DNA of 64,000 nucleotides from an uncultured Prevotellaceae bacterium (GCA_902779455.1 CACZBS010000015.1:26700-90699); one strand, 5' to 3'; positions 45,961-49,212 are shown, numbered from the stretch's first letter. Made by a program: numbers and translations. Notes: generated by a model not told the origin, from the letters alone.

Positions 45961-48900
45961 ATGCAAAGACATCTGCGGTTTCTCCTGTCCGTCGTGGCGG
46001 CGCTGGCGCTGCTGCCCGTAGCGGCCCAGACGGAATGGTCGCCTGAGCGCTCGGGCGGCGTCTACTATGCCTATCCTGAGCGGGCGGCGACGGACGTGGC
46101 CGTGCCCGTCGGCTACGAGGTGTTCTATGTCTCCCACTACGGCCGCCACGGCTCGCGCTGGCTGCCCGACCAGGAGCGCTACGACTGGGTCTGGGCGCAG
46201 TTCGCTGACAAGAAGAACCTGACCCGCGAGGGCCTCCAGCTGCGAAAAAAGCTCCGTTCCATCGTGCGTAACGCCCGCGGACGGGCCGGACAGCTGACGC
46301 CCCTTGGCGCCCGCCAGCACCGCGCCATCGCCGGCCGCATGGCCGACCGCTTCCCCCAGCTGTTCCGAGGGGCCGACGCGCGCCTGACGGCCCGCTCGAG
46401 CACCGTCGGCCGCTGTCGCGCCTCGATGCTCGCCTTCTGCGACGAGCTGCAGGGCCGCTTCCCCGGCCTCGAGGTCGATGCGCAGACCAACGAGGCCGAC
46501 ATGGCGTGGATCAACCACGAGCCGGCCGAGCTGCAGGCGCTCAAGCGGCGCGTCGTGCGACTGCCCGACGTCGACCCCGACCGCTTCATCGCCCAGCTGT
46601 TCAGGGACCCCACGCGCGTCGCCCAACCCCTGAAGCTGCTCTCCGAGCTCCACACCATCGCCAGCGACATGCAGGACGTGCCCCTCGACATCGACCTCTT
46701 CCAATATATGACGCGCGAGGAGATGCAGGCCGTCCACGACGCCAACGACCAGCGCATGAACCTCTGCAACGGGCCCTCGCCGCTCAACGACGGCATCGCA
46801 GCCCGCGCCAGCATCGCCCTCTGGCAGCACATCGCTGACGAGGCTGACGACATGATCGTCCGCCGCGCCCACGGCGCCTCGCTGCGCTTCGGCCACGACA
46901 CGGCCCTCTTCCGCCTGATGACGCTCATGGGCCTGACCACGGGGCGCGACCGCATGGAGGACCTGCTGCCCATGGCGGCCAACCTGCAGCTCGTCTTCGC
47001 CCGCAACGCCGATGGCGACGTGCGCGTGGCTACGCTGCACAACGAGCGCGTGGTCAGCGACTTCGAGCCGTGGACCGCGATGAAGGAGCGCCTCGCACGT
47101 CGTATTCATAATCTCGACCACCTCAGACAGCTTGCCACGCTCAACACGATGGTGGGCACGGCGCCCGCCAACACGCGCACCGCCGGCCTCTTCGGCAAGG
47201 GCTCTGAGGAGCACGGCCAGACGCTGCCCGCTGTGCTGACCCCTAACGGTCAGACGTTCTGGACGCCGCAGACACGCGACACGGAGAAGAAGTGCGTCGC
47301 ACCTTATTATTATACCGACTCGCTCCTGCAGGGCATCCGCGCCAGCCACTGGCTCGTCGGCGGATGCACCCAGGACTACGGCTCCTTCACCGTGGCGGCC
47401 CTCACGGGGCAGCGCCGACTGGCGCCTGAGGAGCGCGCCACCCGCTTCAGCCACTCGCAGGAGACGTCGCATCCTTATTACTACAGGGTATTGCTGCCCG
47501 ACGAGCAGCTCCTCGTCGAGCTGACGGCCCTGAGCCATTCGGCCATTATGCGCGTCACGCCCCTCAAGGACGGCCCCGTCCACATCGTCCTGAACACGAA
47601 CAGCGACGAGCGCGAGGGTGGGGTGGAGCTCGACCGCCGACAGCGCATGGTCTATGCCCATAACCCCGTCCACCGCATCTATCAGGGCTGGGGCGAGCGG
47701 GCCGGATTCAGTGGTCATTTTGTTCTGACTTATACCGATGAAATCGCGGATTTTTGCACTTTCGACGAGGGCGTCTGCCTCACGATGAACGGTCGTCGCG
47801 GACGGCCGATAGAGCTGCGCATGGCCACCTCGTTCACCTCGCGCGAGGGCGCCCTCGGCAACCTGGAGCGGCGAATGACCTTCGACGAGATGATGCAGGC
47901 CAACATCGACCGCTGGACGCAGCGCCTGCACACCATCGACGTCGACGACCCTGACACGGCCCGCGTCCATCAGTTCTACGGCGCCCTCTATCGCGCCTCC
48001 TTCCTGCCCCGCCAGATGAGCGACAAGGACGGACGATATCCGAAGTTCGGGGCGGGTCAACTCTCAACTCTCAACTCTCAACTCTCAACTCACTACTGTG
48101 ACTTCTCCATGTGGGACACCTATCGTGCCCTCCATCCTCTTTATAACATCATCGTGCCCGACGTGTCCGGCCAGATGATGCAGTCGCTCGTCCGCATGTA
48201 TGAGGAGGGCGGATGGATGCCCATCTTCCCCTGCTGGAACAGCTACACGGCCGCCATGATCGGCGACCACTGTGCCTCGGTGCTGGCCGACGCCTGCGTC
48301 AAGGGCATCCGCGGCGTCGACTACGCGAAGGCCTACGAAGGTCTGAGGAAGAATGCGATGGAGTCGCCGGCGACGTTCGAGGAATATAAGAACGGCATGG
48401 GCCGACGTGCACTTGCCTCTTACCTGAAGTATGGCTATATCCCCCTGGAGGACAGCGTCATGGAGGCCTTCCATACGCATGAGCAGACGTCGCGTACGCT
48501 GGAGTATGCCTACGACGACTTCTGCGTGGCCCAACTGGCCCGTGCCTTGGGCCACGACGACGACTATCGGGAGCTGATGCGGCGCTCCGAGAACTGGCGC
48601 CACGTCATCAACCCGCTGACGGGCTATGCCGACGGCCGCCACGCCGATGGCTCGTGGGAGGGCAACACTGACCTGGTGCACCGCAAGCCCTACATCACGG
48701 AGGGCGCCACGTGCCATTACACGTGGTACGTGCCGCAGAACGTCGGCGGACTGATCGATGTCATGGGCGGGACGGCCGCCTTCACGTCGAAGCTCGACTC
48801 GATGTTCACCTGCGGCCGCTACTGGCACGGCAATGAGCCCTGCCATCAGGTGGCATGGCTCTTCTCGCTGGCCGGACAGCCCGCGAAGACGCGCCAGTGG

Positions 48901-49212
48901 GTCAGCCATATCCTCCAGACGGAGTATAACGACACGCCGGGCGGACTCTCCGGCAACGACGACGCGGGCCAGATGTCGGCCTGGCAGCTCTTCGCCATGA
49001 TGGGCTTCTATCCCGTCTGCCCCGGCACGACGGACTACGTGCTGGGTGCCCCCGCGTTCCGTAGGGTGACGCTCAACCAGCCGTCAGGCCGCACGTTCAC
49101 CATCGAGCGGCAGGGCGACGGTGGGTCAGTCTTCCTTAACGGTCAGCCGCATCCGCAGCCCACTGTCAGCCACGCCGACATCGTCAGTGGCGGCATGCTG
49201 GAGTTCAGATAA
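45961..49212 (+). CDS. Fusion of histidine acid phosphatase and GH92 alpha-mannosidase
   Basis: N-terminal HYGRHGSRW and RFGHDT phosphatase motifs; C-terminal FSMWDTYRALHP, SRTLEYAYDD, EG, HGNEP and GNDDAGQMSAW GH92 motifs, all in one ORF. Confidence 0.9.
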   Translation: MQRHLRFLLSVVAALALLPVAAQTEWSPERSGGVYYAYPERAATDVAVPVGYEVFYVSHYGRHGSRWLPDQERYDWVWAQFADKKNLTREGLQLRKKLRSIVRNARGRAGQLTPLGARQHRAIAGRMADRFPQLFRGADARLTARSSTVGRCRASMLAFCDELQGRFPGLEVDAQTNEADMAWINHEPAELQALKRRVVRLPDVDPDRFIAQLFRDPTRVAQPLKLLSELHTIASDMQDVPLDIDLFQYMTREEMQAVHDANDQRMNLCNGPSPLNDGIAARASIALWQHIADEADDMIVRRAHGASLRFGHDTALFRLMTLMGLTTGRDRMEDLLPMAANLQLVFARNADGDVRVATLHNERVVSDFEPWTAMKERLARRIHNLDHLRQLATLNTMVGTAPANTRTAGLFGKGSEEHGQTLPAVLTPNGQTFWTPQTRDTEKKCVAPYYYTDSLLQGIRASHWLVGGCTQDYGSFTVAALTGQRRLAPEERATRFSHSQETSHPYYYRVLLPDEQLLVELTALSHSAIMRVTPLKDGPVHIVLNTNSDEREGGVELDRRQRMVYAHNPVHRIYQGWGERAGFSGHFVLTYTDEIADFCTFDEGVCLTMNGRRGRPIELRMATSFTSREGALGNLERRMTFDEMMQANIDRWTQRLHTIDVDDPDTARVHQFYGALYRASFLPRQMSDKDGRYPKFGAGQLSTLNSQLSTHYCDFSMWDTYRALHPLYNIIVPDVSGQMMQSLVRMYEEGGWMPIFPCWNSYTAAMIGDHCASVLADACVKGIRGVDYAKAYEGLRKNAMESPATFEEYKNGMGRRALASYLKYGYIPLEDSVMEAFHTHEQTSRTLEYAYDDFCVAQLARALGHDDDYRELMRRSENWRHVINPLTGYADGRHADGSWEGNTDLVHRKPYITEGATCHYTWYVPQNVGGLIDVMGGTAAFTSKLDSMFTCGRYWHGNEPCHQVAWLFSLAGQPAKTRQWVSHILQTEYNDTPGGLSGNDDAGQMSAWQLFAMMGFYPVCPGTTDYVLGAPAFRRVTLNQPSGRTFTIERQGDGGSVFLNGQPHPQPTVSHADIVSGGMLEFR
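48057..48092 (+). repeat. (CTCTCAA)4 heptamer tract inside the GH92 domain
   Basis: Encodes QLSTLNSQLSTH; same unit as in topA. Confidence 0.9.

Follow-up and report, generated by a model that had tools for sequence, protein, structure and literature searches.

A 64,000-nucleotide stretch of DNA from an uncultured Prevotellaceae bacterium (GCA_902779455.1, CACZBS010000015.1:26700-90699), referred to in its whole length as the window, encodes at 45961-49212 a protein in which a predicted branch-2 histidine phosphatase (HP2) is joined to a predicted GH92 alpha-mannosidase. To judge from the sequence, the fusion is genuine and neither half looks dead. We consider the chances about even that it belongs to a conserved Prevotellaceae module dismantling glycosyl-inositol-phosphate head groups, for which the head group of plant glycosyl-inositol-phosphoceramides (GIPCs), the main sphingolipids of plant plasma membranes, is the best fit, and slightly below even that an undescribed Prevotellaceae pathway strips the head groups from these plant lipids.

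Two catalytic domains on one chain

The gene is a single frame on the plus strand with an ATG start, 1083 codons and no internal stops. Its product consists, in order, of a signal-peptide-like start, the HP2 phosphatase (residues 25-393) and the GH92 part (residues 394-1083), with no flexible linker. To read conservation, 162 full-length homologues (48-94% identical) were aligned with MAFFT; the counts in the following list of features refer to this alignment.

45961..49212 (+), whole putative fusion gene: signal peptide, HP2 phosphatase and GH92 alpha-mannosidase, 1083 aa
45961..46032 (+), signal-peptide-like N-terminus, residues 1-24, MQRHLRFLLSVVAALALLPVAAQT, without a lipobox cysteine; helix 2-22 in the model
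46033..47139 (+), branch-2 histidine phosphatase domain, residues 25-393, Minpp-like with an HD motif (phmmer, Foldseek, Pfam)
46144..46167 (+), RHGSRWLP motif with R62, nucleophile H63 and R66, aligned to the RHG of BtMinpp and 7R5Y
46411..46413 (+), R151, conserved phosphate-binding Arg (162/162), aligned to the Arg in PRSINSM of BtMinpp
46894..46899 (+), H312-D313, HD proton-donor motif (162/162), aligned to GHDT of 7R5Y
47071..47253 (+), junction, last HP2 helix (371-393) running straight into the conserved GH92 start (394-431)
47140..47850 (+), GH92 N-terminal beta-sandwich domain with subfamily-specific loops (PF17678 over residues 414-607)
47863..49206 (+), GH92 catalytic (alpha/alpha)6 domain (PF07971, residues 635-1082)
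48058..48092 (+), heptanucleotide repeat (CAACTCT)x4 + CAACTCA within the open reading frame, residues ~700-711, QLSTLNSQLST
48700..48702 (+), E914, predicted general acid (TEG motif), aligned to E535 of BT3130, chain index 519 (162/162)
48832..48837 (+), N958-E959 (HGNEP motif; 162/162)
48958..48963 (+), D1000-D1001 (GNDD motif), D1001 aligned to D637 of BT3130

The phosphatase half is recognized by Pfam as His_Phos_2 (PF00328, 29.4 bits against a cut-off of 23.6), and in a phmmer search of the Protein Data Bank (PDB) residues 27-366 match 7R5Y (E 1e-31) and BtMinpp (E ~1e-21). Foldseek on the structure model gives TM scores of 0.80 for 7R5Y and 0.82 for 4FDT. The closest solved phosphatase relative is 7R5Y, a Minpp of Prevotella sp. 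CAG:617 complexed with a myo-inositol hexakis ligand; it and BtMinpp (PDB 4FDT, 5CU7) share with the fusion the RHG nucleophile motif and, at the TM scores given, the fold. In contrast to the domain in the fusion, which is welded to a glycosidase, both are standalone proteins of ~420 aa that act on or bind inositol hexakisphosphate. Residues R62, H63, G64, S65, R66 and W67 are invariant in all 162 homologues; the Pro of the RHGxRxP nucleophile motif comes one residue further on (RHGSRWLP), at a position that family members fill with P or T. Together with the HD motif and a second conserved Arg, this places the domain among the branch-2 histidine acid phosphatases. H63 would form the phospho-histidine and D313 donate the proton, so that a phosphate monoester would be removed.

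Minpps are defined by an HAE tripeptide in place of HD, with E325 as the proton donor in BtMinpp (PMC3969271). No HAE was found at the HD site of the fusion phosphatase, which reads GHDT; 7R5Y, titled a Minpp by its depositors, likewise has HD. Moreover, R183 of pocket S2, conserved in Minpps, falls in a gap of the fusion phosphatase opposite a 6-residue BtMinpp insertion in a single pairwise phmmer alignment. Because of the HD for HAE and the gap at R183, we regard this half as Minpp-like by kinship, not as a canonical Minpp. The phosphatase-coding part (positions 45500-48000) stands out with a G+C content of 0.66-0.70; the figures are ~0.59 for the whole window and 0.51-0.55 immediately upstream.

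Both GH92 domains score far above threshold in Pfam (N-domain PF17678, 107.8 bits, cut-off 34.5; catalytic domain PF07971, 507.4 bits, cut-off 24.6), as does the whole in TIGR01180 (472 bits, cut-off 249.55). A sequence search of the PDB matched BT3130 (E 3e-99) as well as 7zgm, BT2199 and BT3990 (~1e-97), and Foldseek on the AlphaFold2 (AF2) model confirmed the two-domain fold, with TM 0.80-0.87 to BT2199, BT3130 and 7zgm. The fold, the acid Glu, the base Asp, GNEP and GNDD are common to the fusion, to BT3130, BT3965, BT3990 and BT2199 (PDB 6f8z, 6f91, 2wvx, 2wvy) and to the plant N-glycan alpha-1,3-mannosidase 7zgm. The fusion differs from these enzymes in its sequence (~28-30% identity in structural alignment), in the active-site loops of its N-domain, which are rewritten (HGQTLPAV, PNGQ, TPQT, RASHW) relative to the usual motifs and set it in a separate subfamily, and in the whole phosphatase at its N-terminus. 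The multi-domain GH92 of Neobacillus novalis (PDB 7nsn) likewise carries extra domains on one chain; these are non-catalytic, whereas the domain added in the fusion is a predicted second enzyme.

The Asn-Glu pair N958-E959 is probably a calcium or substrate site, as in GH92 structures. D1000 is invariant in the 162 homologues and D1001 is present in 161, with one change from Asp to Asn. By alignment to the catalytic residues of BT3130, E535 and D637 (PMC5930347), E914 is the predicted general acid and D1001 the predicted general base of what would be a calcium-dependent, inverting exo-alpha-mannosidase. The initial annotation had probably taken the Glu of GNEP for the acid, which the alignment reassigns to the Glu of TEG; both are intact, and its statement that two complete sets of catalytic motifs lie in one open reading frame holds across the 162 homologues for every residue, D1001 in 161 of them.

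The heptanucleotide repeat falls in a hypervariable surface loop of the GH92 half, where homologues carry unrelated low-complexity inserts of 10-70 residues, including a collagen-like repeat in homologue P0009. Metagenome contig depth at the repeat is 100-300 times that of its flanks, and the repeat is therefore taken to be common in the community. Since slippage by one unit would shift the frame, it is a possible contingency site.

An AF2 model of the whole chain (82 sequences) reached a pLDDT of 88.1 and a pTM of 0.90, a result in favour of the two enzymes being held in a fixed position relative to each other; as modelled, the halves form a single compact body. The junction peptide quoted in the initial annotation, RRIHNLDHLRQL, corresponds to residues 380-391 and lies inside the helix that ends the phosphatase domain (model residues 371-393). 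An unrelated HP2-GH89 fusion contains this helix too, by alignment, so GH92 begins directly behind it. The family alignment is gap-free at residues 376-425, which rank with the most conserved positions (mean conservation at the junction 0.77-0.96), from which we conclude that a linker is absent and that the junction is as seamless as had been claimed. Residues 401-420 have a low pLDDT (48), yet form the most conserved stretch. The protein had also been called secreted: its N-terminus is signal-peptide-like and the product is probably exported, to the periplasm, although export is itself deduced from a signal peptide judged by eye.

The initial annotation had named an assembly or read-through artefact, or an inactive domain, as what would overturn its reading. 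The source is a metagenome-assembled genome (MAG) of 49 contigs, and the heptanucleotide repeat lies inside the reading frame, both of which leave some room for an artefact. We nevertheless hold either failure to be extremely improbable, since the same architecture occurs in hundreds of independent assemblies, the junction at ~47140 is crossed by contigs of two other studies (1068 and 462 bases), and the catalytic residues of both halves are, on the alignment, invariant. Full-length homologues form more than 120 clusters at 59-94% identity, from Prevotella wherever a source is named, and the fusion also occurs in MAGs from the rumen of roe deer, cattle and red deer. A search for how widespread the architecture is, which had been proposed at the outset, returned 1006 matches to the HP2 part among long proteins, and the top 120 were all HP2 followed by GH92. 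Short contigs matching the fusion gene and the outer-membrane protein gene upstream of it at 95-100% identity were found in two sheep-gut metatranscriptome runs, whose libraries may contain DNA.

Distribution and origin of the fusion

The family was sampled with 401 genomes, which were searched with a query across the junction (residues 300-520). The fused form is present in seven genomes from two genera, while unfused orthologues of the GH92 subfamily, ~760-800 aa long and 50-73% identical from residue ~390 onward, are present in 49 genomes from 16 genera. When the GH92 part is placed in a tree, the fused forms group together (SH-aLRT 96) with a single unfused pair nested among them, which implies one fusion event and a single subsequent loss. 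A second tree was made of 145 HP2 domains, and in it those from the fusion form one clade (19 rows, support 96), the neighbours of which include an HP2-metallophosphoesterase fusion. Nine short proteins (386-480 aa) inside this clade are either standalone genes or contig-end fragments. An apparently long match at a Flavobacteriaceae locus (L019) was rejected, as it consists of three tandem unfused GH92 genes.

In a library of 1.8 billion proteins, the wider HP2 clade is fused to several other enzymes (HP2-GH89, GH2-HP2, HP2-GDPD, HP2-metallophosphoesterase) and also to esterase, rhodanese and leucine-rich-repeat (LRR) proteins. The order is reversed in GH92-HP2 proteins of the same library, whose GH92 belongs to another subfamily (27% identity). 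One protein (P0062, 1695 aa) has HisKA and HATPase_c domains besides the fusion. A group of HP2 proteins of ~590 aa (P0188, P0195, P0196, P0201, P0203, P0207, P0217, P0244) carries an N-terminal domain of ~190 aa to which no family is assigned; the phosphatase at 15109-16848 of locus L050 belongs to this group. We found no description of an HP2-GH92 fusion in the literature searched, and the source records name the fusion proteins only as GH92.

Partner genes and candidate substrates

The neighbours of the GH92 subfamily were recorded at 34 loci from related genomes, where open reading frames were marked by BLAST to reference parts and families by Pfam and NCBIfam. The most frequent partner is a GH28-like protein (14/34 loci), whose closest matches are the exo-poly-alpha-galacturonosidase 3jur and BT4146-type enzymes, all below family cut-offs. 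A second GH92 is found in 11 of the loci, SusC/D in about nine, GH89 together with a NagX/HGSNAT-like glucosamine (GlcN) N-acetyltransferase in seven, and a separate HP2 in three. A SusC/SusD pair adjoins the orthologue in L008, L012, L013, L044, L050, L056 and L060, and L056 also has a calcineurin-like phosphoesterase. Several partners are welded to the GH92 subfamily in other combinations: GH92-GH28-like (L046), GH28-like-GH88-GH92 (L053) and GH28-like-HP2-GH92 (L059). Furthermore, in a genome of the window's own genus (G022), a 969-aa purple-acid-phosphatase or calcineurin-like protein is encoded directly upstream of the closest unfused GH92 (L039, 6800-9709), so that a non-homologous phosphatase is paired with the same GH92 subfamily.

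Parts of the same set are encoded elsewhere in the window's genome: the partner GH92 on contig C43; SusC (70%), SusD (65%), a GDPD and a GH28-like gene on C22; GH89 (63%) and the acetyltransferase (50%) on C2; and a GH28-like-GH88 protein on C27. No partner family occurs at this genome's other three GH92 loci, which are the sole comparison made with other GH92s. On C43, the partner GH92 seemed to start with 320 additional residues; these were discarded as a spurious Arg/Pro-rich reading of upstream DNA without any domain. A small GDPD-family phosphodiesterase lies directly behind the module SusD in two genera, at L061 8420-9184 (C22 of this genome) and L050 8217-9029. The GH28-like-GH88 protein of C27 (L062 1193-6091) has 1632 aa, of which ~730 C-terminal residues have no family match, and it adjoins a pectinesterase-like protein. 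At L053, the GH92 subfamily takes up the corresponding position.

Taken together, the module comprises six functions: an importer; a phosphodiesterase; alpha-mannosidases; an alpha-N-acetylglucosaminidase with a GlcN acetyltransferase; uronic-acid-type hydrolases; and an inositol-phosphatase-like phosphomonoesterase. The GIPC head group consists of glucuronic acid (GlcA) on inositol phosphate (Ins-P), bearing mannose (Man) or glucosamine or its N-acetylated form, GlcN(Ac) (PMC7980081). Because the module offers a candidate enzyme for every bond of this head group, GIPC is taken as the likeliest substrate, ahead of glycosylphosphatidylinositol (GPI) anchors and fungal inositol lipids, which in turn rank ahead of phosphomannan. 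In the proposed sequence of events, a phosphodiesterase (GDPD or calcineurin-like) would free the inositol phosphoglycan, which SusC/D would import; the GH92 subfamily, represented by the GH92 half of the fusion, would remove the terminal alpha-mannose, or alternatively GH89 with the GlcN acetyltransferase would remove GlcN(Ac); the GH28-like enzyme, as a new kind of alpha-glucuronidase, would remove GlcA; and the histidine phosphatase half would release inositol and phosphate. The triple fusion of L059 would, by its predicted domains, carry exactly the three activities needed for Man-GlcA-Ins-P.

A related arrangement has been described elsewhere in Bacteroidota, where SusCD-like 'PusCD' proteins import inositol phosphates and are encoded beside a calcineurin-like GIPC-PLC homologue (bioRxiv 10.64898/2026.09.03.749221). 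Pus1 and Pus2 of Flavobacterium johnsoniae combine a SusCD-like importer, phosphodiesterases (PI-PLC or GDPD-like, and the calcineurin-like GIPC-PLC homologue) and a phosphomonoesterase for the inositol-phosphate head groups of plant lipids (bioRxiv 10.64898/2026.09.03.749221). That work reports no glycosidases, the terms 'mannosidase', 'GH92' and 'glucuron' being absent from its text; its phosphatases are of the PhoA or PafA type and the use of GIPC is only hypothesised there (bioRxiv 10.64898/2026.09.03.749221). In comparison with Pus1 and Pus2, the module of the fusion adds glycan-stripping enzymes and an HP2 phosphatase.

Several points weigh against the assignment to a GIPC-dismantling module. 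Both enzyme activities, the cell location and the substrate are inferred from sequence and gene context, and the phosphatase lacks the HAE motif and R183 of Minpps. The neighbours of the fusion in this genome are an outer-membrane protein, a TPR/AraC regulator and an LRR protein, not the module; with the parts scattered over C22, C2, C27 and C43, their coupling here is assumed from relatives. Among these relatives, 13 of the 34 loci show no named partner within the stretch fetched, and the neighbour counts, coming from related genomes, are not independent. GH28 enzymes are known to act on alpha-galacturonides and are not known to cut alpha-GlcA-inositol, and the GH88 and pectinesterase genes on C27 could simply be pectin genes.

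Other possible targets of such a module are GPI anchors (Man-alpha1,4-GlcN-alpha1,6-Ins-P), fungal mannosyl-inositol-phosphoceramide (MIPC) or GIPC (Man-alpha1,2-Ins-P) and bacterial phosphatidylinositol mannosides. Several mannosidases, the GlcN N-acetyltransferase with GH89, the phosphodiesterases and the inositol-phosphatase-like HP2 would all suit GPI or fungal lipids. Rumen protozoa and fungi could supply GPI or fungal inositol lipids, and the free-amine alpha-GlcN of GPI matches the acetyltransferase and GH89. A module aimed at these compounds is nevertheless unlikely: neither GH88 nor the most frequent partner, the GH28-like uronidase (14 of the 34 loci, with three architectures that fuse it to GH92), would have a target in GPI, MIPC or phosphatidylinositol mannosides, as plant GIPC alone among these compounds contains the uronic acid (PMC7980081). 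A shade less likely again is an enzyme for phosphomannan or phosphorylated N-glycans, in which GH92 would uncap Man-alpha-1-phosphate-6-Man and the phosphatase would remove the exposed 6-phosphate, as on yeast mannan. Such a relay from product to substrate would explain the fusion; CcMan5 (2xsg), a GH92 that uncaps Man-P-Man, is a precedent for the chemistry; and the HP2-GH89 fusion could likewise uncap GlcNAc-1-P-6-Man. Moreover, in the mannan loci of Bacteroides thetaiotaomicron, where Man-1-P is cleaved, mannosidases occur together with the phosphatases BT2630 and BT3783, and a mannosidase and a phosphatase act jointly on one phosphorylated glycan (PMC4978465). In these loci, however, the activities reside in separate proteins (GH92 or GH38 mannosidases and a Mg-dependent EEP-type phosphatase) accompanied by GH76, GH125 and GH99, whereas the fusion is a single chain with a histidine phosphatase and different neighbours. 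Part of the neighbours in the window and at the related loci were annotated, and they include no GH76, GH125, GH38 or GH99. Yeast mannan has no need of the partners that do recur steadily, enzymes of the uronic-acid type and a GlcN acetyltransferase, and the phosphatase fold differs from that of BT3783, its nearest relatives binding inositol phosphates. Kinship to CcMan5 is not close either: it ranks 38th, as the weakest and most distant solved GH92 match (20% identity, TM 0.72), and is absent from the sequence matches at E 1e-20 or better. The two substrates proposed in the initial annotation thus fare differently: mannosylated inositol phosphates come close to the gene context, while yeast or fungal phosphomannan finds no support, as the partners are of the uronic-acid type and the nearest solved phosphatases are inositol polyphosphate phosphatases.

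It is also conceivable, at odds a little longer than those for phosphomannan, that the chain combines two unrelated activities and has no common substrate, a phytase-type phosphate scavenger simply sharing its export with a mannosidase. In favour of this, the closest relatives of solved structure are phytate-active Minpps, the window has no glycan-module neighbours, and the HP2 clade has many different fusion partners, among them esterase, rhodanese and LRR proteins. A joint function is indicated by the conserved linker-free junction and the pTM of 0.90, and by the repeated pairing of GH92 with a phosphatase: in an independent fusion of opposite order with a different GH92 subfamily, in loci that hold a standalone HP2 gene alongside an unfused GH92, and next to the closest unfused GH92 in G022, where the phosphatase is non-homologous. 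The missing HAE motif and R183 also speak against a phytase-type enzyme.

Surroundings of the gene and significance

Two neighbouring genes accompany the fusion in the window:

45076..45942 (+), upstream gene for an outer-membrane beta-barrel protein of ~288 aa, real start taken as MNKNVKF
49392..51047 (+), downstream gene for a TPR and AraC-type HTH regulator (Pfam HTH_18, HTH_AraC, TPR)

The outer-membrane protein gene ends 18 nt before the fusion gene, and the two are probably co-transcribed. Its product has no Pfam match and was placed by a protein atlas with 'outer membrane protein beta-barrel' clusters at 0.99. The TPR/AraC gene is a candidate local regulator. Both genes likewise stand beside the fusion at locus L017 (93%-identical), and a gene similar to the TPR/AraC one adjoins the partner GH92 on contig C43. 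No SusC/D pair adjoins the fusion in this window or at L017.

Further upstream, at 44905-44990, a 21-nt tandem repeat in four copies (consensus CCGTCACGTCGTGACGGCATG, with a palindromic core) precedes the outer-membrane protein gene; it is a possible array of binding sites for a regulator, or else a REP-like element. A divergent gene at 41513-44656 (-) encodes a 1047-aa LRR protein with a weak dockerin-type C-terminal match and is conserved in L017. Downstream, 52994-55570 (-) encodes a protein with a BT4734-like N-terminal domain, beyond which the G+C content falls to 0.46-0.52 (56000-60000), possibly in a segment that is mobile or of foreign origin.

While the two enzyme families are familiar ones, their joining is not described in the literature searched. 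If our assignment to the GIPC head group is correct, the fusion family and its partners would be the missing glycan side of GIPC breakdown in rumen and gut, giving access to a large and overlooked plant pool of carbon, inositol and phosphate. It would also imply new specificities, for GH92 (Man-alpha-1,4-GlcA) and for the GH28-like enzyme, and the proteins would provide tools for the analysis of GIPC head groups, for which there is no commercial source.

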